Positions 4,193 to 33,997 are shown, counted from the first letter of the stretch. The stretch is 33,997 nt of DNA from an uncultured Eubacteriales bacterium (GCA_964389165.1 CAYMDI010000001.1:1-33997); one strand, 5' to 3'. Notes: generated by a model not told the origin, from the letters alone. Numbers and translations: made by a program.

Positions 4193-4283
4193 CAGGGATG
4201 TTCCTTTCTTTTGCGGATTCAACCGCAATGGTTTACCCAGGCAGGGCTGTATGGTAGACTGATGGAAAAAAGGAGTGATTCTC

Positions 4284-4730
4284 ATGGATTGTCTCAATAT
4301 TTCCCTGGAAGGCACAGATGGCGCTTTCCATAGCCTGAAGGATTATCTGGGGAAGAAAATCCTTGTGTTCTTCTATCCCAAGGATAACACAGGGGGATGA
4401 ACCACGGAAGCGAAAGAATTCACAATTTCCAGGCTGGAGATTGAAAAACTCAATGTAGCCCTGATGGGAGTCAGCAGGGACAGTATCGCTTCTCACAGGA
4501 AATTCATTGAAAAACAGGAACTGGACCTTCTGCTTCTGAGTGACAAGGATAGCGCCTTGTGCAATTGCTTTGAGGTACTGAAGGAAAAGAATATGTACGG
4601 GAAAAAGGTGATGGGCATTGAACGGAGCACCTTCCTGCTGGATGAGGAAGGGAATCTGCTAAAAGAATGGCGGAAAGTGAAGCCGGAGGGCCATGCAGCG
4701 GATGTGCTGGCCTATCTTCAGAGCCTTTAG
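4284..4730 (+). CDS. bcp: Bcp-type peroxiredoxin (thiol peroxidase) with in-frame TGA at codon 39; candidate selenocysteine protein
   Basis: AGGAG (4271-4275) lies 8 nt before ATG 4284. Translation gives MDCLNISLEGTDGAFHSLKDYLGKKILVFFYPKDNTGG-[TGA 4398-4400]-TTEAKEFTISRLEIEKLNVALMGVSRDS... and continues in the same frame into the listed 4464..4730 ORF (4464-4284=180). The TGA falls exactly where Bcp proteins carry the peroxidatic Cys (YPKD.TPGCT.E). Confidence 0.75.
4402..4437 (+). promoter_or_regulatory. candidate bacterial SECIS hairpin downstream of the bcp UGA
   Basis: Hand-folded pairs are 4406-4410 with 4426-4430 (GGAAG/UUUCC, one G.U) and 4412-4414 with 4419-4421. The apical loop AGAA (4415-4418) contains a G about 18 nt after the UGA. 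An outer CCA/UGG helix (4402-4404 with 4435-4437) is possible. The structure is modest and not validated. Confidence 0.3.
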
Positions 4731-4841: not shown

Positions 4842-4870
4842 TTGACAGAAGGTGCAGGGAGGAAGATAAT
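4842..4870 (+). promoter_or_regulatory. sigma-A type promoter of the thrS leader
   Basis: TTGACA (4842-4847), a 17-nt spacer, then GATAAT (4865-4870). Confidence 0.6.
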
Positions 4871-4876
4871 ATAAAG

Positions 4877-5105
4877 TAGGTAAATCGTTGATCGGGATGA
4901 GTACCTATCCGCAGGACCTGCAGAGAGAGAAGCCTTGGCTGGAAGCTTCTTGGGAGGCGGACAGGGAAGACCACCCGGGAGAGGGAGCTGAAATCCAGTA
5001 AGCGACACGCAGGCCAGCGTTACGGGCAGGAAAGGAAGGGCCCAGTGCCCTTTGAATTAGAGTGGAACCACGGTGCTATCGTCTCTTAGATGATAGCGCC
5101 TTTTT
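4877..5105 (+). promoter_or_regulatory. T-box riboswitch leader (threonine specifier) controlling thrS
   Basis: The leader shows a GA/K-turn-like GAUGAGUA near the 5' end and an AGAGA element (about 4921-4930). A candidate specifier ACC is followed by A (4970-4973). An F-box-like GCGUUAC is present. The conserved T-box sequence AAUUAGAGUGGAACCACGG (5055-5073) overlaps the 5' arm of a terminator. Confidence 0.85.
5072..5105 (+). terminator. intrinsic terminator of the T-box leader (attenuator)
   Basis: A 12-bp stem pairs GGUGCUAUCGUC (5072-5083) with GAUGAUAGCGCC (5089-5100), including two G.U pairs. The loop is UCUUA and UUUUU follows (5101-5105). It lies 19 nt before the thrS start. Confidence 0.85.
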
Positions 5106-5123
5106 GTCTGATTGGAGGAAAAT

Positions 5124-7031
5124 ATGATGCAGGTAAAGCTTAAAGATGGAAAGGTGATTGAAGCGGCTGAAGGCAGCACCTTGATGGATCTCGCGGCAGG
5201 AATCAGCGGACGTCTGAAAAAAGAGGCGGTTGTGGCCCGGGTCAACGGCCGTCTCATGGATCTGTCCCAGCCTGTCCATGATGGGGATCAGGTGGAAATC
5301 TATACCTTGAAGGATCCGGAAGGCCTGGAAACCTATCGCCACAGCAGCGCTCACATTATGGCTGAGGCTGTGGGGGAGCTCTTCCCCGGGACGAAATTCG
5401 GAATCGGGCCGGTGATCAAAGAGGGCTTCTACTATGACTTCGATACGGACCATGTCTTCACACCGGAAGATCTCCAGAAGATTGAAGAGAAGATTGCTGA
5501 AATCGTCCAGCGCAACACCCCCTTTGTGCGAAAGGTCCTGAAACGGGAGGAGGCCCTGGAGTACTTTGGGAATCTCGGTGAGAAGTACAAGGTAGAACTC
5601 ATTTCAGACCTTCCGGAGGGAGAAGAGATCAGCATTTATGAGCAGGGCGGCTTCCTAGATCTCTGCAGAGGCCCTCATGTCCCTTCTACAGGTTATCTGA
5701 AGGCCTATAAGCTGATGAATCTTGCCGGGGCATACTGGCGGGGCAGCGAGAAGAATAAGATGCTCCAGCGGATCTATGCCACTGCTTTTCCGGACAGGAA
5801 AGAGCTGGAGGCCTATCTGACCAGGCTGGAAGAAGCCCGGAAGAGGGATCACCGGAAACTGGGGGCGGAACTGGATCTTTTTACCCTGGAAGAAGAGGGC
5901 CCTGGATTCCCACTTTTCCTGCCCAAGGGTATGGCACTGCGCAATGAGCTGGAAGACTATATGCGGGAAATGTATAAGAAGTGGGATTATGAGGAAATCA
6001 AGACCCCCATCATTCTGAACCGCAAGCTTTGGGAGCAGTCCGGGCACTGGGATCACTATAAGGAAAACATGTATTTCACAAAGATCGATGAAGGGGATTA
6101 TGCAATCAAGCCGATGAACTGCCCAGGCTGCATGCTGGTGTACAAGCATGGTCAGCATAGCTACAGGGAGCTTCCCATCCGTTATGCAGAGATGGGTCTG
6201 GTCCATCGCCATGAGAAGTCCGGGGTGCTCCATGGTCTTATGCGGGTCCGGGCCTTCACCCAGGATGATGCCCACATCTTCATGCTTTACCACCAGATCA
6301 GGGAGGAAATCCGCAAAGTCATAGAAATGGTGGATGAGGTCTACCAGACCTTTGGCTTCACCTATAGCGTGGAGCTTTCAACCCGTCCTGAAAAGGCTAT
6401 GGGTGAAGTGGAAATGTGGGATATGGCCACCCAGTCTCTTAAAGATGCCCTTGAGGAACTGAAGATGCCCTATGCCATCAACGAAGGGGATGGGGCCTTT
6501 TACGGGCCGAAAATCGATTTCCATCTTAACGATTCCATTGGGCGTACCTGGCAGTGCGGAACCATCCAGCTGGACTTCCAGATGCCTGAGAAGTTCGACC
6601 TCACTTATATCGGCGAGGACGGAGCCAAGCATCGGCCTGCCATGATCCACCGGGCAATCTATGGCTCCATCGAACGGTTTATCGGAATCCTCATTGAGCA
6701 TTACGGAGGGGCATTCCCTCTGTGGCTTGCGCCAGTGCAGGCCAATATCCTGCCTGTTGCAGAAGTGCATCAGGATTATGCCTGGGAAGCTGCAGCCCGT
6801 TTGAAAAAGGCCGGAATCCGCGTCCAGGTAGATGACCGGAATGAGAAACTGGGATACCGTATCCGGGAAAGCCAGGTGAAGAAGATCCCTTATACCTTCG
6901 TGGTAGGAGATCGGGAAGCGGAGGAAGGAACCGTATCTGTACGCAAGCGGGGAGAAGGGGATCTGGGCAGCAAGAGCCTGGAGGAAGTCCTGGCTCTCCT
7001 GGCTGACGAGATCCGCAGCAAGGGGAAATAA
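5124..7031 (+). CDS. thrS: threonine--tRNA ligase
   Basis: Full-length ThrRS is present, with a TGS domain (VKLKDGKVIE), an editing domain (HSSAHIMA) and a class II core (RVRAFTQDDAHIF, FYGPKIDF). I moved the start from the TTG at 5112 to ATG 5124, which follows GGAGG (5114-5118). Confidence 0.95.
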   Translation: MMQVKLKDGKVIEAAEGSTLMDLAAGISGRLKKEAVVARVNGRLMDLSQPVHDGDQVEIYTLKDPEGLETYRHSSAHIMAEAVGELFPGTKFGIGPVIKEGFYYDFDTDHVFTPEDLQKIEEKIAEIVQRNTPFVRKVLKREEALEYFGNLGEKYKVELISDLPEGEEISIYEQGGFLDLCRGPHVPSTGYLKAYKLMNLAGAYWRGSEKNKMLQRIYATAFPDRKELEAYLTRLEEARKRDHRKLGAELDLFTLEEEGPGFPLFLPKGMALRNELEDYMREMYKKWDYEEIKTPIILNRKLWEQSGHWDHYKENMYFTKIDEGDYAIKPMNCPGCMLVYKHGQHSYRELPIRYAEMGLVHRHEKSGVLHGLMRVRAFTQDDAHIFMLYHQIREEIRKVIEMVDEVYQTFGFTYSVELSTRPEKAMGEVEMWDMATQSLKDALEELKMPYAINEGDGAFYGPKIDFHLNDSIGRTWQCGTIQLDFQMPEKFDLTYIGEDGAKHRPAMIHRAIYGSIERFIGILIEHYGGAFPLWLAPVQANILPVAEVHQDYAWEAAARLKKAGIRVQVDDRNEKLGYRIRESQVKKIPYTFVVGDREAEEGTVSVRKRGEGDLGSKSLEEVLALLADEIRSKGK

Positions 7032-7111: not shown

Positions 7112-7948
7112 ATGTGGTATAAGATTGAAGAGATCGAAGCGAAATACGGTCTTACCAAGTTCTCTATCTATGCCCTGATCACGCAGGAACCGGAGCTGCG
7201 GAAGCATATCAAGGCTCTGGAAGGAGTCCTTCAGATTAATGAAGAGGGGATTGGGGTGCTGCTGAAGCATGCCTCCAGGAAGACGGATGATTCCCCCCCT
7301 ACCTATGCGGATAACAATACGATTATTTTTTCAAGAGATAAGAAAGAGGAAGCGGAAGCTCCTGTGGAGCAGGAGGATAAGACAGGGGAAGAAGAGGATC
7401 TCTTCGGCAGCGTCTTCCAGAGCACAGGCTCCTTCTTTGATGAAAAGGAAGAGTCCCTGTCTGCTAATGATGCAGGGCATGAAGAGTTCTTCACCTCCAT
7501 GGGTGTGCGGGCTGATATGGCTGCTGCTGCAGCAGTGGCGGCTGCAGTTCCTGAGGCTGAGGCAGAGCCGGAAGTCCCCCAGGGGGCGGATGAATTTACT
7601 GCAGAGGACTTGGTCTTCCAGGAGGCTCCTGAGCCTCAGGATGATATGGCGGAAGCAGATGAAGTGAACCCTGCTGTTTTCGACGATATTGCCGCAACAG
7701 ATGATTTCTTCAGCGACTATGCTCAGGAAGAGGAAGATTACCTGGCAGAGCCGGAAACCGTGACAGAATTCGAAGCGGCTTCTGATGATGAGTTCACCAT
7801 GGAGGGCTACATTAAGGCCCTGAAAGAGAAGATGATCATTCAGAACGAGCAGATCAGAGCCCTTTCAGCCTATCTGGACGTCAGCCGCAAAATGCTGCTG
7901 CAGGATGAGAAGATTGTAGGGATCCTTGAAGGGATGTACCGGAAATAG
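7112..7948 (+). CDS. hypothetical protein: N-terminal HTH-like segment, long acidic low-complexity tract, C-terminal helical segment
   Basis: GGGAGG lies 7 nt before ATG 7112. The N-terminus YKIEEIEAKYGLTKFSIYALI resembles excisionase/MerR-type HTH_17 helices. The central ~170 aa are very D/E/A-rich. The tail KALKEKMIIQNEQIRALSAYLDVSRKMLLQDEK looks coiled-coil-like. I recognise no family. Confidence 0.6.
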   Translation: MWYKIEEIEAKYGLTKFSIYALITQEPELRKHIKALEGVLQINEEGIGVLLKHASRKTDDSPPTYADNNTIIFSRDKKEEAEAPVEQEDKTGEEEDLFGSVFQSTGSFFDEKEESLSANDAGHEEFFTSMGVRADMAAAAAVAAAVPEAEAEPEVPQGADEFTAEDLVFQEAPEPQDDMAEADEVNPAVFDDIAATDDFFSDYAQEEEDYLAEPETVTEFEAASDDEFTMEGYIKALKEKMIIQNEQIRALSAYLDVSRKMLLQDEKIVGILEGMYRK

Positions 7949-8029: not shown

Positions 8030-8095
8030 GTCTCCAAGAGTGTATGTGAAAGGAGCGGGTAACCTGATTGCAAAAATTGAAGGGAGTTGTTAAAC

Positions 8096-9295
8096 ATGGA
8101 CACACTATGGACCCCTATTTTTGCCTTCATGGTTTTCGCAGTGGCCTTTGGCCTTGGGGATATTGTGGCAAATCGGACAAAAAGCCTGATATCCTCTATC
8201 ATTGTGGGCAGCAGTATCTTTCTTGTAGGATATGTGACTAAAATCATTCCTACGGATGCTCTGGCCAGTACGGGATTGGTAACCTTTTTCGGCGCAGTAG
8301 GCCTGGCCTTGCTGGTGGCGAATCTGGGAACCTTGATGAACCTCGGCCAGCTGATGAAGGAATGGAAGACGGTCCTGATCGGACTAGCCGGATTGGTTGG
8401 TCTGGCTATTGTAGGCTTCACCATCGGGGTGGCCCTCTTTGGTGAGACTGTCGCACTGACAGGAACCGTCCCGATTTCCGGCGGCCTTGTAGCAGCTATG
8501 CTGGTAGCCAATGCAGCGAAGGAGGCCGGGCGGGCGGATATGGCTGCCTTTGCCACTTTGGTCCTGGCTTTCCAGATGTTTGTAGGCCTCCCAGTGAGCG
8601 CATTCCTTCTGAAAAAGGAAGCGGCAAGGCTGCTTGGGCTGAAGGCAGGAGGAAAACTGGAGACGGCTTCCATGGCAGCCAAAGAATATAATCTCAGGCT
8701 TCTTCCCAAAATGCCAGACTGGGCGCTATCTCCCTCTGTGGTCCTGGCCAAGCTGGCCATTGTCCTGGTTGTAGGGAAATTCCTCTCTGACCTGACTATT
8801 GTCAATGGACAGCCTATTGTCCATCCGTATGTAGCCTATCTCCTCTTGGGGATTGTGGCAACAGAAATTGGCTTCCTGGAAAAGCAATCCTTCAACAAGG
8901 CTCAGTCTGCAGGCTTTATGATGGCGGGGATCATGATTCTTCTCCCGGGAAATTTTGCCAGCGTTACCTTGAGCAGCCTGGCCCAGATGGTGGTTCCCCT
9001 TGTAGTCCTGCTCCTTCTCGGGGCCGCAGGCATCGCTCTCTTTTCCTTTATTGCTGGGAAGCTCCTCCGTGTATCCCCCTATGTGGCTATTTCCATCGGC
9101 CTCACTGCTCTTCTGGCTTATCCTGCTACGCAGATTGTAACTGAAGAAGTGGTCCGTTCCCTGGATGTAGGAGAAGAGGACAGGAAATTCGTGATGGATC
9201 AGCTTCTCCCCAAACAGCTTGTAGGAGGGTTTGTGACTGTAACGGTAGCCTCTGTCGTATTTGCAGGCATCATCGTGCCTCTGATTCCGTTCTAA
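8096..9295 (+). CDS. polytopic integral membrane protein, putative transporter of unrecognised family
   Basis: The ~399-aa product is almost entirely hydrophobic with roughly 10-12 predicted helices. AGGGAG (8081-8086) lies 9 nt before ATG 8096. I cannot assign a family by eye. Confidence 0.7.
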   Translation: MDTLWTPIFAFMVFAVAFGLGDIVANRTKSLISSIIVGSSIFLVGYVTKIIPTDALASTGLVTFFGAVGLALLVANLGTLMNLGQLMKEWKTVLIGLAGLVGLAIVGFTIGVALFGETVALTGTVPISGGLVAAMLVANAAKEAGRADMAAFATLVLAFQMFVGLPVSAFLLKKEAARLLGLKAGGKLETASMAAKEYNLRLLPKMPDWALSPSVVLAKLAIVLVVGKFLSDLTIVNGQPIVHPYVAYLLLGIVATEIGFLEKQSFNKAQSAGFMMAGIMILLPGNFASVTLSSLAQMVVPLVVLLLLGAAGIALFSFIAGKLLRVSPYVAISIGLTALLAYPATQIVTEEVVRSLDVGEEDRKFVMDQLLPKQLVGGFVTVTVASVVFAGIIVPLIPF

Positions 9296-10830: not shown

Positions 10831-11562
10831 ATGAAAATAATCCTCTGTGAGGATCATCCTGATTTCAGAGCCCGGAATCTGAAGGTGGTTCAGGATTTTC
10901 TGAAGGCTGAAGGGCTTTCAGGGGAAATCTCGGTTTTTTCCACATATCAGGAAACCATGGATTATCTGAAGTCCCTGGATCATTATGATGACTGTCTGTA
11001 CATTCTGGATATCGGCCTTCGTGGGGAAAAGAACGGCTTGCATCTTGGTCGGGATATCCGGGACCTGGATGGATACCAGGGGGAGCTGATCTATGTAACA
11101 GGGTATAGCCATCAGATGGGGAATGTAATCCGCTATAAGCTTAGAATCCTGGATTTTATCGATAAAAATATGCGTCTGGAGCAGGAACTTGCAGAGGACC
11201 TGAAAATCTTTCTTCGCCTTTACAGGGAAAAGCAGGGAAATGGGATATTGTCCTATAAGGAAGGAAAGGAAATCCATCAGATCCAGATAAGGGATATCCT
11301 CTGGATTGAAACGGAAAAGTCGCAGAAGAGGATACTGATTCATACAGCCAGAGAGGAATTCTCCGTTCCTCTTTCATTAAAGGAAGTCCGTGAAAAACTA
11401 CCGGATGATTTCCAGCAGATCCATCGCTGCACCTTGGTTAGCAGGCGTCATGCTTCGGGACTATCTCCTGACCAGGAAGGGCTCTATCTGGAAATGGATG
11501 ATGGCAGCCGGAAGATTGTGGCAAAACGCAGTGAAAGGGATGTGCGGAAATGGTTTATCTGA
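10831..11562 (+). CDS. LytTR-family response regulator (AgrA/VirR/ComE-like)
   Basis: The receiver domain (MKIILCEDHP..., LYILDIGL acceptor Asp region) is followed by a LytTR DNA-binding domain (IRDILWIETEKSQKRILIHT..., FQQIHRCTLVSRRH). Confidence 0.85.
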   Translation: MKIILCEDHPDFRARNLKVVQDFLKAEGLSGEISVFSTYQETMDYLKSLDHYDDCLYILDIGLRGEKNGLHLGRDIRDLDGYQGELIYVTGYSHQMGNVIRYKLRILDFIDKNMRLEQELAEDLKIFLRLYREKQGNGILSYKEGKEIHQIQIRDILWIETEKSQKRILIHTAREEFSVPLSLKEVREKLPDDFQQIHRCTLVSRRHASGLSPDQEGLYLEMDDGSRKIVAKRSERDVRKWFI

Positions 11563-12848
11563 TTCTGACAACCCTCCTCCATCCCTGGCTGATCCAGCGT
11601 TATGGCAGAGAGCCAGTGCGGATTGACTTCCTCAGCATCAGTCTGATCCTTCTGCTGATTCCAGCTAAGGTATTCCTGCATGCTTTCCTGGCTGACAGTT
11701 TCACATATTTTCTTGTGGCCTGGCTTTCTGTCTATCTGCAGACAGTAGTGCTATATAGGAGATTCTCTTCCAAGGATGTGGAACTGTCCTTCTTTCTGAT
11801 GTTGTGTAATGCCTTATTCTACTATATATCTGCTGGCATCCTCCTCTTCCTTACCCAAGGGGTCTCCATTCAGGATGTGGTGAATCTGGAACTGATCGGA
11901 CAGAATAACCCCCTGCAGATCAGCATGACAATCCTCCTCCTTGTCCTTTTCGGAGTCTTCCGGAATCAGATTCATCTTGAATTCCGGGAAGGTGAGGGGG
12001 AAAAGCAGCGCTTTCAAAGCATATTCTTCATTCTTACCATGAATCTTATCATCCTGGTGATGTATAACATGGAGATGCCAGAAGGGGCAAAGCTGATTCT
12101 TTTTGTCATTCTCAATCTTGCTGTAATCACCTTCTATATCCGCAATCGCAATCTGTGGCATGAGACTGCGAAAGATAAGGCGGCTATTCAGGAGCGGAAC
12201 CGCACTATTCAGGAGCTTCACAGCTATGTTCAGACCATTGAGACCCTGACAGACCGTTTTCAGGAGTTCCGGCATGATATGGCCAATATGATGGTTGGTT
12301 TAGGTTTGGACGAGAGCAGGATCCAACGGACCATAGAACTGGTGGAACATGATCTGGCAGGACAGTCAGACTATGGGAACCTCCTGGCGCTGCGTCAGAT
12401 CCACCATCCATCTCTGAAATCCCTTCTTTACTATTATGTGATGAGAGGGAAAGAGGCAGGGCTGAAGATCACATTGAATGTTCTTGGGGATGTGACCTCC
12501 TATCCCTGGCCTGAAGTCCCTGTATCCAGGGTTATGGGAATACTCTGTGAAAATGCGCTGGAAGCGGCACAGGAATCAGAAGATAAGATTCTGGATATCT
12601 TTATTGAAGAACGGAGAGAGAGTCTTACCATTACCATCGGCAACTCCTATCAGGGGAGCATCCAGGATATCCCGGTGCTTTTTGAAAAAGGCTATTCCAC
12701 CAGAATCGGGGAAAGAGGCAGGGGGCTGTATAACCTCCGGGGAATCATTGAGGAGAACCCTGGCTTTCATCTCAAGACACTCCTTCAGGGAAATCTCTTC
12801 ATACAGGACCTGACCTTGAAGAAGGAAGCGGAAGAAGAGCAGGAATAG
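11550..12848 (+). CDS. AgrC/HPK10-like membrane sensor histidine kinase (GHKL ATPase)
   Basis: The N-terminal ~200 aa contain about 6 hydrophobic helices. There is an H-box FRHDMANMM, an N-box CENALEAA and a G-box GYSTRIGERGRGLYNL. The start overlaps the RR stop by 13 nt. Confidence 0.85.
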   Translation: MVYLILTTLLHPWLIQRYGREPVRIDFLSISLILLLIPAKVFLHAFLADSFTYFLVAWLSVYLQTVVLYRRFSSKDVELSFFLMLCNALFYYISAGILLFLTQGVSIQDVVNLELIGQNNPLQISMTILLLVLFGVFRNQIHLEFREGEGEKQRFQSIFFILTMNLIILVMYNMEMPEGAKLILFVILNLAVITFYIRNRNLWHETAKDKAAIQERNRTIQELHSYVQTIETLTDRFQEFRHDMANMMVGLGLDESRIQRTIELVEHDLAGQSDYGNLLALRQIHHPSLKSLLYYYVMRGKEAGLKITLNVLGDVTSYPWPEVPVSRVMGILCENALEAAQESEDKILDIFIEERRESLTITIGNSYQGSIQDIPVLFEKGYSTRIGERGRGLYNLRGIIEENPGFHLKTLLQGNLFIQDLTLKKEAEEEQE

Positions 12849-12918: not shown

Positions 12919-13977
12919 TTATTTCAAAGTGAGCCGCACATCCTGCAAACTGCCATTACGGCTGATTTTCAGGGTAATCCTGTCTCCTGGCTTCTGTCGG
13001 AAAAGGACGCTGCGGAGCTGTGCTCCGGTACGGATGTCCTCGCCTCCGATCTGAAGGATGATATCATTGGCCCGGAGGCCCGCAATATCTGCCGGTGAAT
13101 TGGCAGCGACCGCACCGATAAGGACCCCTTCGGGCACATCATAGTATTCTGCCATGGATGCGCTAATATCCACCAGGCCGGATACCCCCAGGTAAGGCCG
13201 GGTGACTTTGCCCGTCGTGATGATCTCTTCTGCAAGAGGCTTCACTGTATTGATCGGGATGGCAAAGCCCAGACCTTCTACCCCGGCAATGGATATTTTC
13301 GCGCTGTTGATGCCTATGAGCTGTCCCAGGATGTTTACCAGAGCGCCGCCGCTGTTTCCCGGATTGATGGCCGCATCTGTCTGAAGGACGGTCATCAGAA
13401 CCTGGACCCCTTGGGCACTGGTGATAGTCAGGTCCCGGGAAAGGGCGCTGATCACACCCACTGTTACGGTGTTTGCAAAGTCAGTGCTGAGTGGAGAGCC
13501 GATGGCAATGGCTGTCTGACCTACCTTCAGGGTGGAGGAGTCCCCCAGTTCCATTGCGGTAAGGCGGTTTTTGTCTTCTAACTGGATGATGGCGATATCT
13601 GCATCGGGATCGCCTCCGATGCGCTGGGCTTTGCTGACCCTGCCATCGGCAAGGCTCACGGAAAGCTCCCCGTCATCCTGGACTACATGATAGTTGGTGA
13701 CGACATAACCCAGGGCGCTGTCAATGATGACTCCAGAGCCAAGGGCTGTGCCGGTGATGCTGTCTCTGGAAATCTGGACAACCGAGGGTATTGTTTTGGA
13801 AACAATATCCGGAAGAGAGACATTCTCACCCAGACGGATTTCGTTTACAGCACTGCTGCCTTCCTCCGGAGCGCTTTCCTCCATAGAGGCCAGGCCTGTG
13901 TAAAGGAGGATCGCCAGTAAAGCGCCCACCATTGCTGTAAGCAGCGTCTTCAGGATTTCAGTCCAGGGAGGTTTCAT
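12919..13977 (-). CDS. htrA: HtrA/DegP-family serine protease with N-terminal membrane anchor and C-terminal PDZ domain
   Basis: The catalytic triad context is present: TNYHVV, DADIAIIQL and GNSGGALVN. A PDZ-like tail follows. I moved the start to ATG 13977 (MKPPW...), 6 nt after AAGGAG. Confidence 0.9.
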   Translation of the reverse strand: MKPPWTEILKTLLTAMVGALLAILLYTGLASMEESAPEEGSSAVNEIRLGENVSLPDIVSKTIPSVVQISRDSITGTALGSGVIIDSALGYVVTNYHVVQDDGELSVSLADGRVSKAQRIGGDPDADIAIIQLEDKNRLTAMELGDSSTLKVGQTAIAIGSPLSTDFANTVTVGVISALSRDLTITSAQGVQVLMTVLQTDAAINPGNSGGALVNILGQLIGINSAKISIAGVEGLGFAIPINTVKPLAEEIITTGKVTRPYLGVSGLVDISASMAEYYDVPEGVLIGAVAANSPADIAGLRANDIILQIGGEDIRTGAQLRSVLFRQKPGDRITLKISRNGSLQDVRLTLK

Positions 13978-13998
13978 ACCATGCTCCTTTGCCAGCAA

Positions 13999-14913
13999 TC
14001 AGAGATTGCTGATGTATTCATAGGCCATCTGGCCTGCCACGGCTCCATCTCCCACAGCTGTGGAGACCTGCCGCAGATTCTTCGCCACCACATCTCCACA
14101 GGCAAAAAGCCCGGGGACGTTGGTTTCCATCTTGTCGCTGACGATAATCTGATCCGCATCGTTTGTATTGAGGATATTCTTCACAAAACTGCTGTTCATA
14201 ATCTGGCCCACGGCTACGAAAACCCCATCCATTGCAATCGTCTGCTGCCGGCCTTCCCGGAGGTTCTCCAACACCAGCTCAGTAACCTTTGTTTCCCCCT
14301 TGATTTCAAGGGGAATGGTATCCATCAGCACATGGAGGTTCGGGTAGTCCGGCAGTTTGTCAACCAGAATCTGGCTGCCCCGGAACTGGTCTCTTCTGTG
14401 AATGAGATAGACCTCGCTGGCAATGCTGGTGAGATAGATAGCATCTTCCAGGGCTGTATTGCCGCCACCCACCACGGCGACCTTCTTCCCTTTAAAAAAG
14501 AAGCCGTCACAGATGGCGCAGTAGGAGACTCCCTTACCCTGGTATTCCCGCTCCCCGGGTACGCCGAGATTCCGGGGATAGCCCCCCGTAGCAATGATCA
14601 CAGCCTTGGCTTCCATAATGCCTGTGGAAATCTCCACCTGGAACTGCTTGTCTTTCTTGGAAACCTTTTTCGCCGTATCATTGATGAGCTGGAAATCTGG
14701 GAAGCCGCTGATCTGCCCATACATGGCATTGGCCAGGTCAAAACCCAATACACCCTGTGCAAAACCAGGGTAGTTGTCAATCTGTTCTGTTTTCAGAAGC
14801 TGGCCCCCTGGGGCTCCTTGCTCGATCATCGCCACTGAAAGGCCGCTTCTCAAGGCATAAAGGGCAGCTGTCATTCCTGAGGGGCCTCCCCCGATCACAC
14901 ATACATCAATCAT
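13999..14913 (-). CDS. trxB: thioredoxin-disulfide reductase
   Basis: The product has an FAD-binding site GGGPSGMTAA, the redox-active CAICDG motif, and NADPH motifs GGGNTALEDA and HRRDQFR. AAGGAG lies 7 nt before ATG 14913. Confidence 0.95.
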   Translation of the reverse strand: MIDVCVIGGGPSGMTAALYALRSGLSVAMIEQGAPGGQLLKTEQIDNYPGFAQGVLGFDLANAMYGQISGFPDFQLINDTAKKVSKKDKQFQVEISTGIMEAKAVIIATGGYPRNLGVPGEREYQGKGVSYCAICDGFFFKGKKVAVVGGGNTALEDAIYLTSIASEVYLIHRRDQFRGSQILVDKLPDYPNLHVLMDTIPLEIKGETKVTELVLENLREGRQQTIAMDGVFVAVGQIMNSSFVKNILNTNDADQIIVSDKMETNVPGLFACGDVVAKNLRQVSTAVGDGAVAGQMAYEYISNL

Positions 14914-14940: not shown

Positions 14941-16323
14941 TTATCTTAACATTTCCCAGATCTTGTTTTTCGTGATGAAATCACTGGTTCCCGGGTTCTG
15001 CGCCTCCAGCCCTTCCAAGAGCTTCACAGCCTGTACGTAGAGAGCCTCCTCCAGCCGGATTTTTGTAATCTCACAGCTTAGGGCATAGGGGGAGAGAAGG
15101 CCTTCCCCATAGTGGATGTTATTGGCATGGCAGCCGCCGGAGCAATGGAATCGGGCCCAGCAGGAGCGGCAGGAGTCCTTGCTGTAGATGCTGGCATCCT
15201 GGAAATCCTGGGAGATGTCCTTGCGGATACCCTCCTCCATGATGTTCCCCAGTCGGTACTCCGGATTTTCTATCAGCTGATGGCAGGGGTAGATATCTCC
15301 TGAGGGGGTAACGGCCAGATACTCCGTTCCTGCACCGCAGGCGGTAATCCGCTTATAGATGCAGGGGCCCCCTTGGAGCTGGATGTTGAAATGGAAGAAA
15401 TCCAGGGGATCTCCCTCCCTGTACCACTTCAGGTAACGCTGTCCAAGCTCTTCATAGGCGGACCGGATGGCAGGAAGGTCCTCCCAGGTGATGTCCCCTC
15501 CGATAACAGGCTCCATGGAAAGGTGCCGGAAGCCAAGATCCCGCAGGGCTTCCACATCTTCGTAAAAGTCCAGGTTCTTTCCTGTATAGGTGCCCCGGGC
15601 TACATAATCCTCGCTTTTATCCTTGAAGGACAGATAATTCCGCACTACCGTATCGTAGCTGCCCTCGCCGGATTTGGTGTAGCGGTTGGCATCGTGGACT
15701 TCCTTCCGGCCATCAATGCTCAGGACAGTCCCCACCTGATGTTCCTCAAGGTAACGGCCTGTCTCCTCGTCCAGGAGAAGGCCATTGGTGGTCATGGACC
15801 ACTTGATGGCCTTTCCGGCTTCCCGGGCCTTTTCTTCCCCATAGGGGATGAGCTCCCGGATCAGAGGCAGGTTCAGGAGAGGTTCCCCGCCGAAAAAGTC
15901 CACCTCCACCAGCCTTCGGCCCTGGCTCTCTGACAGCAGGCGGTCAATGGCTCTCTTCCCCACCTCCGGGGACATAATGGCTTCTGCCCCTTTATAGTTT
16001 CCTCCAGAAGCGAAGCAATAGGGGCAGGCCAGATTGCAGACATGAGCGACATTAAGGCAGAGGGACTTCAGATTATAATTTATATTCCGGGGAAGGGCCC
16101 CATCATCCGGGGTGCCCAGGCGGCCCTCCTCGATGAGGGCGCGGATTTCCGCCAGGGCTTCCAGTTCCTCCTGCTCCTTAAAATCTTCAGGAGCCTGCCC
16201 CTGGAGCAGGGCCTCCAGGACCTGGGCGCTCTGGGGATCGAAGAGGTGAAGGGAGCCTGAATTCACATCCAGGACTAGGTTCATATCCCCTTTCCGGATA
16301 ATATGGACATCGTGTCTGTTCAT
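14941..16323 (-). CDS. scfB: radical SAM/SPASM thioether-forming maturase of the SCIFF peptide (ScfB/CteB-like)
   Basis: The radical SAM motif CNLACPYC (CxxxCxxC) is present. The Cys-rich SPASM C-terminus includes CGAGTEYLAVTPSGDIYPC and CRSCWARFHCSGGC. I moved the start from 16494 to ATG 16323 (MNRHDVHIIRKGDMNLVLDVNSGSLHLFD), 5 nt after GGAGG. The resulting 460 aa is the typical size for this family. Confidence 0.9.
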   Translation of the reverse strand: MNRHDVHIIRKGDMNLVLDVNSGSLHLFDPQSAQVLEALLQGQAPEDFKEQEELEALAEIRALIEEGRLGTPDDGALPRNINYNLKSLCLNVAHVCNLACPYCFASGGNYKGAEAIMSPEVGKRAIDRLLSESQGRRLVEVDFFGGEPLLNLPLIRELIPYGEEKAREAGKAIKWSMTTNGLLLDEETGRYLEEHQVGTVLSIDGRKEVHDANRYTKSGEGSYDTVVRNYLSFKDKSEDYVARGTYTGKNLDFYEDVEALRDLGFRHLSMEPVIGGDITWEDLPAIRSAYEELGQRYLKWYREGDPLDFFHFNIQLQGGPCIYKRITACGAGTEYLAVTPSGDIYPCHQLIENPEYRLGNIMEEGIRKDISQDFQDASIYSKDSCRSCWARFHCSGGCHANNIHYGEGLLSPYALSCEITKIRLEEALYVQAVKLLEGLEAQNPGTSDFITKNKIWEMLR

Positions 16324-16336
16324 TTGTTCCTCCAAG

Positions 16337-16360
16337 AAAAAAGGCCCCGCATCCGGGACC
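16337..16360 (-). terminator. small intrinsic terminator/attenuator between scfA and scfB
   Basis: On the minus-strand RNA, GGUCCCG-GAUG-CGGGGCC forms 7 bp (one U.G) and is followed by UUUUUU. The structure sits in the 49-nt gap between the peptide stop and the maturase start. On the plus strand the same stem has a C/A mismatch. Confidence 0.55.
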
Positions 16361-16372
16361 TTCCGATAGGGC

Positions 16373-16519
16373 TTATTGGTGTAGGCAAAGCTGATTCGCC
16401 ACAGTGCAGGAGGTCTTGCAGGCGGACTGGCAAGCTGACTGGCAGTTTCCGCAGCCTCCTGTTTCCTTGGTTCCCTGCAGCCCCGGACTGGCAAGTGTAA
16501 GGATGTGTTTGTTATTCAT
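16373..16519 (-). CDS. scfA: SCIFF (six cysteines in forty-five residues) RiPP precursor peptide, 48 aa; not in the supplied ORF track
   Basis: The minus strand reads GTTAGGAGGGTTGAACC-ATG (16519). Translation gives MNNKHILTLASPGLQGTKETGGCGNCQSACQSACKTSCTVANQLCLHQ, ending at TAA (16373-16375). There are six Cys residues. The core GGCG.CQ..CQSACKTSCTV.NQ.C matches the SCIFF consensus as I recall it. The gene lies immediately upstream of the matching rSAM maturase. Confidence 0.9.
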   Translation of the reverse strand: MNNKHILTLASPGLQGTKETGGCGNCQSACQSACKTSCTVANQLCLHQ

Positions 16520-32514: not shown

Positions 32515-33997
32515 TTATGGGGCAGAGGACTGGGGATTCTTGTAGGTCTTGTTTTCAGGAATGGTCCATTCCTTCTCCTCCAGAAACTTGCTGCCACCCA
32601 GGATATCTCCGTTGAGGAGAGAATAGAGTTCATAGATCTCTTTGTATTCAGGGCTGTCAGTGAAATAGAAGGTATTATCCATGACCAGATAGGCATTGGT
32701 CATGCTGTTGATATTCCGCTGGGAGAGAAGTGAGAGGATTTTCAGATAGTTTGGTGTCTGGATTCCTGTGCCTGAAAAGAGGCGGGCCAGGAGAAGGCTG
32801 GCATCCAGGGTGTCCGGGGAACCCTTCGGCCTTTCATAGTTGCTCCAGATAAAGGCTGGGGTCACATGGGTGATATAGTCGTTTTCAGGGGTGGTCAGGT
32901 TGTCCACCAGTCCAAGATCCATGTAGGCATTCCCGTTCTGATTCACTTTGGGATAATGATCTCCATAAAAGAGGAGAAGGGTAGGGCGCTTCCGGGCTGC
33001 AAGGGCGGAGATGAAATCTTCCAGGGCATCATCGCTAGCCTTCAGGCTAGAAAGATAGGTGTTGTAGATGCGCAGGGTTTTGGTGTTCTCCAGCTTGCCC
33101 CCCACATACACGACGGCATTCTCATAGCCTTCCGGGGCTACAAAGGGGGTGTGATTCTGCATGCTTACGCCCATGACGAACCGGTAAGGGCTGCCAGTAT
33201 CCTTTTCCAGCTCCTGAAGGACATGGCTATAGAGCATCTCATCAGTCATGTAGTCATCCACGGCATCCCAGTAGCGGGTATCCTCTGTGACAACTTTGGT
33301 GCCTGCAAGATATTCCAGGCCATAGAAGGTATCGAAGCCCAGCAGGCGGTAGGCATTATCCCTGCGGTAAAAGGTGCTGTGGAAGGGATGGAGCATGGTC
33401 GCACTGTAGCCGTTGTTCTTCAGGATGCTTCCCACAGAGACTGTGGGCTTTACGAGATAGTTGGAAAAGACAGTGGCATCACTGGGATAGAAGATGGTAG
33501 ACATTCCGGTTATCACTTCAAATTCTGAGTTCGCCGTTCCTCCTGCAAAACTGGGCACTGAAATGCTGAAGCTGTCTGCCTGGCTCTGGAGGGCCCTGAA
33601 GTAGGGCAGGGGATCTTCTGAAAAGTTATCCAGACCAAGAACCGAAGGATCTGTGAAGGATTCACTCTGAATGATTACAACATCCGGCATAAGGGTGGAC
33701 GTGTTCAGAGGAACCTGTTCCAAAAGCGGAGCAAGTGATTCACGGACCTGATCCTCTTCCGGGACCCTGAGGGAAGTGGTATTTTTAATCTGAGCGGCAA
33801 AATAGTACAGGGAGCCGCTCTCTTCAATGTATAGCTTCCTTTTTATTCCCGCGCTTTTTATAGTGATGGTATAGGGCCCGAAGAAGTAAAGGAAGAGAGA
33901 CAGGAGCACAAAGGCCAGAATCCCGTTCTTGCGGAACTTGGGATTCAGACGGATTACAGGCATATTCAGGATCAGAAAAAGGGAAAGGATCAGGATC
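32515..33997 (-). CDS. LTA synthase / sulfatase-family membrane enzyme (LtaS-like), 5' end outside the window
   Basis: The sulfatase-type extracellular domain shows IIQSESFTDPS, GGTANSEFEVITG and FYGDHYP. The reading frame stays open upstream of the listed Met through hydrophobic codons to the window edge, so the N-terminal TM region is truncated by the window. Confidence 0.8.
   Translation of the reverse strand, partial: ILILSLFLILNMPVIRLNPKFRKNGILAFVLLSLFLYFFGPYTITIKSAGIKRKLYIEESGSLYYFAAQIKNTTSLRVPEEDQVRESLAPLLEQVPLNTSTLMPDVVIIQSESFTDPSVLGLDNFSEDPLPYFRALQSQADSFSISVPSFAGGTANSEFEVITGMSTIFYPSDATVFSNYLVKPTVSVGSILKNNGYSATMLHPFHSTFYRRDNAYRLLGFDTFYGLEYLAGTKVVTEDTRYWDAVDDYMTDEMLYSHVLQELEKDTGSPYRFVMGVSMQNHTPFVAPEGYENAVVYVGGKLENTKTLRIYNTYLSSLKASDDALEDFISALAARKRPTLLLFYGDHYPKVNQNGNAYMDLGLVDNLTTPENDYITHVTPAFIWSNYERPKGSPDTLDASLLLARLFSGTGIQTPNYLKILSLLSQRNINSMTNAYLVMDNTFYFTDSPEYKEIYELYSLLNGDILGGSKFLEEKEWTIPENKTYKNPQSSAP

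Follow-up and report, generated by a model that had tools for sequence, protein, structure and literature searches.

The window analysed here is a stretch of 33,997 nucleotides from an uncultured Eubacteriales bacterium (GCA_964389165.1, CAYMDI010000001.1:1-33997). It contains a peroxiredoxin gene, referred to as bcp, whose reading frame is interrupted once by a TGA codon. The features of this gene and of the other loci discussed are summarized in Table 1. With the TGA counted, the frame consists of 148 sense codons and is closed by TAG at 4728-4730. Its translation is MDCLNISLEGTDGAFHSLKDYLGKKILVFFYPKDNTGG*TTEAKEF...AYLQSL*, with one internal stop, and the segment around this sole interruption reads ...ILVFFYPKDNTGG*TTEAKEF.... 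A reading made from the sequence alone, referred to as the sequence-only reading in this text, had described a good ribosome-binding site for the ATG at 4284 and a Bcp of normal length that runs on after the TGA, free of stops, into an 88-aa fragment. Both the AAGGAG element and the translation agree with this description. A total of 109 codons are left for translation after the UGA. Because the codon for the active-site residue Arg114 is among them, this residue is produced only if the UGA is read through.

Table 1. Positions of bcp, its parts and the other loci of the window (positions are counted from the first nucleotide of the window)
Feature	Position	Strand	Description
RBS AAGGAG	4270-4275	+	8 nt before the start codon; read from the sequence
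41-aa ORF	4275-4400	+	GTG start; first part of bcp in a mechanical ORF list
bcp CDS	4284-4730	+	Bcp/PrxQ-type peroxiredoxin (predicted); 148 codons + TAG, single in-frame TGA
TGA codon 39	4398-4400	+	Proposed selenocysteine codon; peroxidatic Cys position, PxxxTxxC (P32, T36, U39)
Candidate bacterial SECIS hairpin	4423-4443	+	CAAUUUCCA-GGC-UGGAGAUUG; 9-bp stem, RNA folding
88-aa ORF	4464-4730	+	ATG start; C-terminal portion of the bcp frame
Arg114 codon	4623-4625	+	Conserved active-site arginine of peroxiredoxins; invariant in homologue alignment
Promoter TTGACA-17-GATAAT	4842-4870	+	Near-consensus; belongs to the thrS T-box leader
T-box leader	4879-5089	+	Rfam RF00230, 104 bits
Terminator	5072-5100		
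thrS	5112-7031		Follows the T-box leader
Conserved ORF	7112-7948	+	278 aa
Conserved ORF	8087-9295	+	About 400 aa
Two-component pair	10831-12848	+	LytTR-type response regulator and HATPase_c_5 histidine kinase, 13-nt overlap
trxB-like and htrA-type genes	12919-14913	-	Adjacent genes in the same frame
trxB-like flavoprotein gene	13999-14913	-	304 aa, ends in TGA
Radical-SAM/SPASM protein gene	14941-16494	-	Resembles anaerobic sulfatase-maturating enzyme
Sulfatase gene	32515-33963	-	Right end of the window

Automatic gene calling does not recover bcp as one gene. The mechanical ORF list splits it into the 41-aa and 88-aa ORFs, and the public gene calls at this locus in ten other contigs of the species (L001-L010) give ORFs of 38 aa and 88 aa, so that the gene is broken up by standard annotation as had been foreseen. 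The promoter scan found no consensus sigma-70 promoter directly upstream of bcp. The sole strong promoter of the window belongs to the T-box leader of thrS, which is followed by a terminator and by thrS itself and represents ordinary tRNA-sensing attenuation.

The host has no close cultured relative. Its GatB protein is 76% identical to that of a metagenome-assembled genome (MAG) labelled "Firmicutes bacterium", 66% to that of the Trimyema endosymbiont TC1, 63% to that of Zhaonella formicivorans and 61% to that of Dehalobacterium formicoaceticum. Two adjacent conserved ORFs between thrS and an M20 peptidase gene have no Pfam match. Further along the window, a response regulator gene and a histidine kinase gene form an Agr-like two-component pair, and the histidine kinase gene of this pair is split into ORFs of 250 aa and 187 aa in one strain (L009). 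A sulfatase gene is found at the right end, and longer contigs carry two tandem sulfatase genes (L140, 12957-16568). Together with the radical-SAM/SPASM protein, the tandem sulfatases suggest the use of sulfated glycans or mucin.

Subfamily and active site of the encoded protein

With Cys placed at the TGA, the bcp product matches Pfam family AhpC-TSA (PF00578) over residues 5-125 (E 5.4e-28) and Redoxin with E 1.3e-11. The best solved relatives are structures of Xanthomonas campestris BCP (3GKK and 5IIZ, E 3e-41), and the top nine PDB matches are all Bcp-type (E 3e-41 to 3e-37). The best NCBIfam models are PrxQ with 130.8 bits and thiol peroxidase Bcp PRK09437 with 117.4 bits, scores that lie under the strict equivalog cutoffs of 260 and 140, respectively. 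AhpC and Prx6-type models score below 45 bits. Membership in the PrxU family (NCBIfam NF040737) was rejected at 39 bits against a cutoff of 270; the match to this model is limited to residues 17-102, against model positions 59-151 of 233, and the window protein has 148 residues. Based on the PDB relatives and the model scores, the predicted product is a member of the Bcp/PrxQ subfamily and not of AhpC/Prx1, Prx6, Tpx or PrxU.

An alignment with 14 full-length homologues places the TGA in the peroxidatic-Cys column of the motif YPKDxTPG-C-TxE. The window protein reads YPKDNTGG-TGA-T in this region, which includes P32, T36 and U39, and the homologues carry Cys in the TGA column. The claim that the TGA exactly replaces the catalytic Cys is therefore upheld by the alignment. 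Three diverged lineages (L011, L012 and L096) carry TGA at this codon too. Their proteins have 61-66% amino acid identity to the window protein and form a small clade with it.

Bcp enzymes can carry a resolving Cys at either of two positions, and the window protein has neither. The residue at +5 from the peroxidatic position, a resolving Cys in many of the aligned homologues, is Lys44. The residue at +36, in alpha-3, is Ile75 (KFIEKQ), which is aligned to the Cys of NFCAKQ in 5IIZ. Both canonical resolving Cys are absent from L011, L012 and L096 as well. An atypical 2-Cys Bcp was thus ruled out by Lys44 and Ile75. Since a resolving Cys is present neither at +5 (E. coli type, alpha-2) nor at +36 (Xanthomonas type), the enzyme is probably of the 1-Cys type, in this case 1-Sec. 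The sequence-only reading had noted the Lys at +5 and proposed a 1-Sec mechanism from it; Lys44 is confirmed, and Ile75 at the alternative position is in agreement with the predicted mechanism. One further Cys of the product, Cys93, is conserved in the Cys-type homologues too and is presumably the counterpart of a dispensable Cys of E. coli Bcp.

Xanthomonas campestris BCP, an atypical 2-Cys Bcp/PrxQ, can be aligned to residues 8-146 of the window protein. The YPKDxTPGxTTE segment is common to both, as are the motifs GVSRDS and GIERSTF, the latter of which contains the catalytic Arg. Unlike the Xanthomonas gene, the window gene has UGA (Sec) at the codon of the peroxidatic Cys. The resolving Cys of the Xanthomonas enzyme corresponds to Ile75 in the window protein, and an intramolecular disulfide or selenenylsulfide of that type is therefore impossible.

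Decoding of the in-frame UGA

Among the stop codons of the window, TGA is the most frequent. It ends 12 of the 27 likely genes, including mrnC, thyX and rlmB, and genes terminated in this way are of normal length and are fully covered by their Pfam matches. Genetic codes 4 and 25 are excluded by this use of TGA as a genuine stop, as had been argued for code 4 from mrnC, thyX and rlmB. Among the in-frame-TGA candidates in the window, no second selenoprotein was found; they represent off-frame noise or neighbouring genes that share a frame. One of them, a read-through frame of 670 codons, was rejected as a single gene because it consists of two adjacent genes, a trxB-like flavoprotein gene followed by an htrA-type protease gene.

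The alternative that survives best is non-canonical reading of the UGA, e.g. reassignment of the code to Trp or Gly, near-cognate read-through, or insertion of Cys by a tRNA-Sec-like tRNA with a SelB-like factor. Such a route is favoured by the fact that Cys-charged tRNAs resembling tRNA-Sec are known from some anaerobes, and the Sec machinery of the organism is itself a prediction. The two closest full-length database homologues, P0001 (66% identity) and P0002 (61%), moreover carry Trp in the Cys column. This Trp is, however, an artefact of a gene caller that used genetic code 4 on short TGA-containing contigs: the DNA at the corresponding loci (L011:393-842 and L012:509-958) reads TGA, and translation table 11 does not yield these proteins. 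Reassignment is also opposed by the normal lengths of the 12 TGA-terminated genes. An enzyme with Trp or Gly in place of the peroxidatic residue would be inactive, which does not fit the purifying selection on the gene, and SelB-dependent decoding is indicated by a conserved SECIS-like hairpin whose loop contains GG. Non-canonical reading is thus improbable, and insertion of Sec is preferred.

This hairpin has a GGC loop at 4432-4434 (A-GGC-U), which lies 31 nt from the UGA, and a free energy of -7.9 kcal/mol. The published model of the bacterial SECIS (bSECIS) element specifies an apical loop of 3-9 nt and an upper stem of 4-16 bp (PMC13188914, Fig. 2). It further specifies G in the first two loop positions, typically as N-G-[G/U]-N-N with the flanking N's paired, a spacing of 16-37 nt between UGA and loop, and a free energy of at most -7.5 kcal/mol (PMC13188914). 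The window hairpin agrees with the model in all four respects, and it lies inside the interval 4398-4460, in which the sequence-only reading had suggested looking for a SECIS element. The bSECIS model is permissive, with 6-23% of control positions passing. No Rfam SECIS family matched 4380-4480 at E values up to 10, where only two noise matches were seen.

A hairpin is found at the identical position in L011, L012 and L096, with a loop of GGC or GGU, although the minimal hairpin in these three reaches only -6.3 to -6.4 kcal/mol. Three stem pairs are changed on both sides, from U-A to G-C, from U-G to A-U or G-U, and from U-A to A-U. These compensatory changes cross codons, so that the encoded residues are Ser-Arg-Leu-Glu (UCC AGG CUG GAG) in the window and Ala-Arg-Leu-Ala (GCC AGG YUG GCU) in the others, and the Arg codon AGG, the source of the loop GG, is retained in all four lineages. 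Across the four sequences, 88.9% of cells are paired, compared to 22-44% with the 3' partners displaced by 1-3 columns; a column-shuffle control is not significant at n=4, with 53-67 of 500 shuffles doing equally well. When JGI metagenome contigs were scanned twice for TGA patterns specific to the clade, no match and then two chance non-Bcp matches were obtained, and the covariation therefore stays at n=4. Among three close Cys-type genes, one passes the bSECIS model by chance and two are without such a hairpin; the A-GG[C/U]-U minihelix at +31 is found in none of the three.

The Sec machinery was searched for in the window using ARAGORN, Rfam at the gathering threshold and Pfam on all large ORFs. 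No selA, selB, selD or tRNA-Sec was found in the approximately 57 kb of the species covered by the window, its upstream extension L001 and its downstream extension L140, too small a part of the genome for this result to count as negative. This portion contains housekeeping genes, sulfatases and penicillin-binding proteins, and no tRNAs were found in it. There is a very slight chance that UGA decoding bypasses the canonical SelA/SelB/tRNA-Sec route or that the organism is without selD and selA. Such a route could consist of, e.g., a GG-loop hairpin that recruits a SelB-like factor together with a Cys-charged tRNA-Sec-like tRNA.

Conservation of the gene and proposed mechanism

In a public assembly collection, 52 blocks index the 88-aa fragment (P0005), and ten conspecific contigs that stem from separate runs and projects (L001-L010) were compared with the window. 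TGA is present at codon 39 in all ten. Five sites in bcp vary among them, all of which are synonymous third positions downstream of the TGA. L138, a further contig that was assembled from a wastewater metagenome, encodes a protein with two amino acid differences to that of the window and keeps the TGA. The codon is therefore TGA in 11 of 11 independent metagenome assemblies of the species, and a misread TGC or TGT, which the sequence-only reading had allowed for, is not what these assemblies contain.

The diverged lineages extend this observation over a much longer distance, and the recurrence of the TGA exceeds what chance would give. L096 (contig JAGXHY010000012.1), from a MAG named "Bacillota bacterium LH_M73" that was found in a genome scan, is syntenic with the window (cysS-mrnC-thyX-rlmB-sigma factor-M20 peptidase(-)-bcp). 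Synonymous sites between the lineages are saturated (pS 0.55-1.0), whereas pN is 0.08-0.28 on either side of the TGA, and dN/dS, where computable, is 0.04-0.15. In the part downstream of the TGA, pN is 0.08-0.26 compared to a pS of 0.67-0.95. Both halves of bcp are under purifying selection. No frameshift, extra stop or decay was found in L011, L012 or L096, so that the decayed relatives that would betray a dying gene did not appear.

These data bear on the possibility that bcp is a pseudogene, its catalytic codon having been turned into a stop by mutation, or a product of sequencing or assembly error. The 38-aa and 88-aa ORFs given by gene callers and the lack of Sec machinery in the sequence reached would fit this explanation. 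Against it stand the identical TGA in 11 independent assemblies, the same-codon TGA without other lesions in three lineages with saturated synonymous sites, the selection acting downstream of the TGA, the synonymous nature of all five variants within the species (L001-L010), and the occurrence of this TGA in at least 127 matches from other species. Because both halves are clean and the codon is fixed as TGA across such divergence, the gene does not appear to be dead; the pseudogene explanation is very unlikely and seems effectively refuted by the conservation data.

Least credible of all is the production of two small proteins without recoding, a 38-residue N-terminal peptide and an 88-residue protein from the ATG at 4464: automatic annotation calls both ORFs and AhpC-TSA is still recognized in the 88-aa ORF by itself, but the entire PxxxTxxC segment of the active site and the initial beta-strands of the thioredoxin fold are missing from this fragment, the stretch of codons 40-60 that separates the TGA from this ATG is conserved as protein in all lineages, and M61, which opens the ORF in the window, is Ile or Val elsewhere (LIGVS, IIGVS, LVGVS), so that no ATG restart exists in the other lineages and the fragment is not an independent gene.

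The bcp frame is therefore best read as a whole. It is very probably a single functional gene for a Bcp/PrxQ peroxiredoxin in which Sec39, encoded by the UGA, takes the place of the peroxidatic Cys. A Sec/Cys pair at the peroxidatic residue of Bcp was the central proposal of the sequence-only reading, and the conservation of the TGA, the selection on both sides of it, the hairpin and the standard genetic code all argue for it.

A mechanism can be proposed for the Sec-containing enzyme. When the ribosome reaches the UGA, the hairpin would serve as the bacterial SECIS element and recruit SelB-GTP-Sec-tRNA(Sec), upon which Sec would be inserted and the remainder of the protein translated. The selenolate of Sec39, placed by Pro32, Thr36 and Arg114, would reduce hydroperoxides and be oxidized to a selenenic acid. 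Because there is no resolving Cys at Lys44 or Ile75, thioredoxin or another thiol would probably reduce the oxidized Sec39 directly, in the manner of 1-Cys Bcp enzymes. The trxB-like flavoprotein gene of the window lies 9 kb from bcp, and nothing links the two.

Sec-containing Bcp in other genomes and relation to known peroxiredoxins

The distribution of similar genes was investigated by scanning one genome per GTDB species with the pattern TAYCCNAARGAYNNNACNNNNGGN-TGA-ACNNNNGAR. At least 127 matches in at least 120 loci were found in these species-representative genomes. Among the matches listed, 120 of 124 stay open for at least 90 codons past the TGA, 116 post-TGA translations are homologous to the post-TGA part of the window protein, and 126 full proteins match the window protein. 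In 52% of the matches listed, a hairpin in agreement with the bSECIS model is found after the TGA, compared to 6-23% at shifted control positions in the same genes. The residue at +5 is Cys in 50 of 124 matches listed (approximately 40%), Lys in nine and another residue in the rest. Since Cys is found at +5 in some of these and other residues in the rest, both 2-Cys-like and 1-Sec forms of Sec-Bcp exist.

The hosts among the matches listed include Poribacteria, Binatia, delta-proteobacteria, Gemmatimonadota, Chloroflexota, Eremiobacterota, Acidobacteriota, Planctomycetota and Synergistales, as well as the Firmicutes Clostridium argentinense, Tindallia, Acidaminobacter, Effusibacillus and Alicyclobacillus. 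The sequence-only reading had framed the gene by selenoproteins of anaerobic Firmicutes. This framing is too narrow, as Sec-Bcp is no rarity of that group: it occurs in many phyla in the scan and is the long-described Prx selenoprotein family (PMC1088965, PMC1794560, PMC13188914). In Poribacteria (L017:159-1178, + strand; also L024, L034, L048 and L092), two matches to the pattern lie 151 codons apart in one open frame. This frame encodes a hydrophobic N-terminal segment and, after it, two Bcp-like domains in tandem, with TGA at each peroxidatic position (AFYPKDFTGG*TTEL... and AFYPKDFTGG*TAEV...). Its candidate product is a secreted tandem peroxiredoxin that contains Sec twice.

Outside its own clade, the window protein has 57-60% identity to Cys-Bcps and 47-55% to other Sec-Bcps. 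Twelve Sec-Prx genes have been found in complete genomes, from which five conversions of Cys to Sec were inferred (Zhang et al., 2006, PMC1794560). An origin of the window clade by one of the repeated Cys-to-Sec switches reported for the Prx family is consistent with the sequence comparisons.

The value of the window gene is mainly practical. In the assemblies examined, bcp is annotated as fragments of 38 aa and 88 aa or, on short contigs, "rescued" by code 4, and correct annotation returns a peroxide-defence enzyme to the inventory of the organism. The Sec-Bcp also makes it probable that this uncultured Firmicutes lineage, which occurs in metagenomes from wastewater and elsewhere, uses selenium. 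Code-4 "rescue" with Trp at a catalytic position could be mined systematically for selenoproteins. No new biological question is opened by the gene, as Sec-Bcp has been catalogued since 2004-2005 and is present in at least 120 loci, from well over a hundred species across many phyla.

PrxU was given as the example of the class in the sequence-only reading. As described in reference 83 of PMC13188914, PrxU of the anaerobic Firmicute Eubacterium (Peptoclostridium) acidaminophilum has Sec at the peroxidatic position and is without a resolving Cys. The window protein can be likened to PrxU in this mode of working, and Sec peroxiredoxins are indeed a described class. The two belong to separate Prx subfamilies, and the window protein is not of the PrxU family by the score given above.

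The closest known system is the Prx selenoprotein family of COG1225, which is the Bcp group. In the selenoproteome of the Sargasso Sea, "Peroxiredoxin (Prx)" with the motif TXXU was placed in COG1225 and listed as a previously known family (Zhang, Fomenko and Gladyshev, 2005, PMC1088965), and a 2026 review counts Prx (PF00578, TxxU) among the experimentally supported prokaryotic selenoproteins (PMC13188914). The window gene shares with this family the AhpC/TSA fold, UGA within PxxxTxxU, widespread Cys homologues and a SECIS-type hairpin just 3' of the UGA. It differs in its host, an uncultured Firmicutes lineage from metagenomes, and, compared to the Sec-Bcps of the scan with Cys at +5, in carrying Lys at that position. 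The window gene thus adds a member to a Prx selenoprotein family that has been known since 2004-2005 and is widespread.
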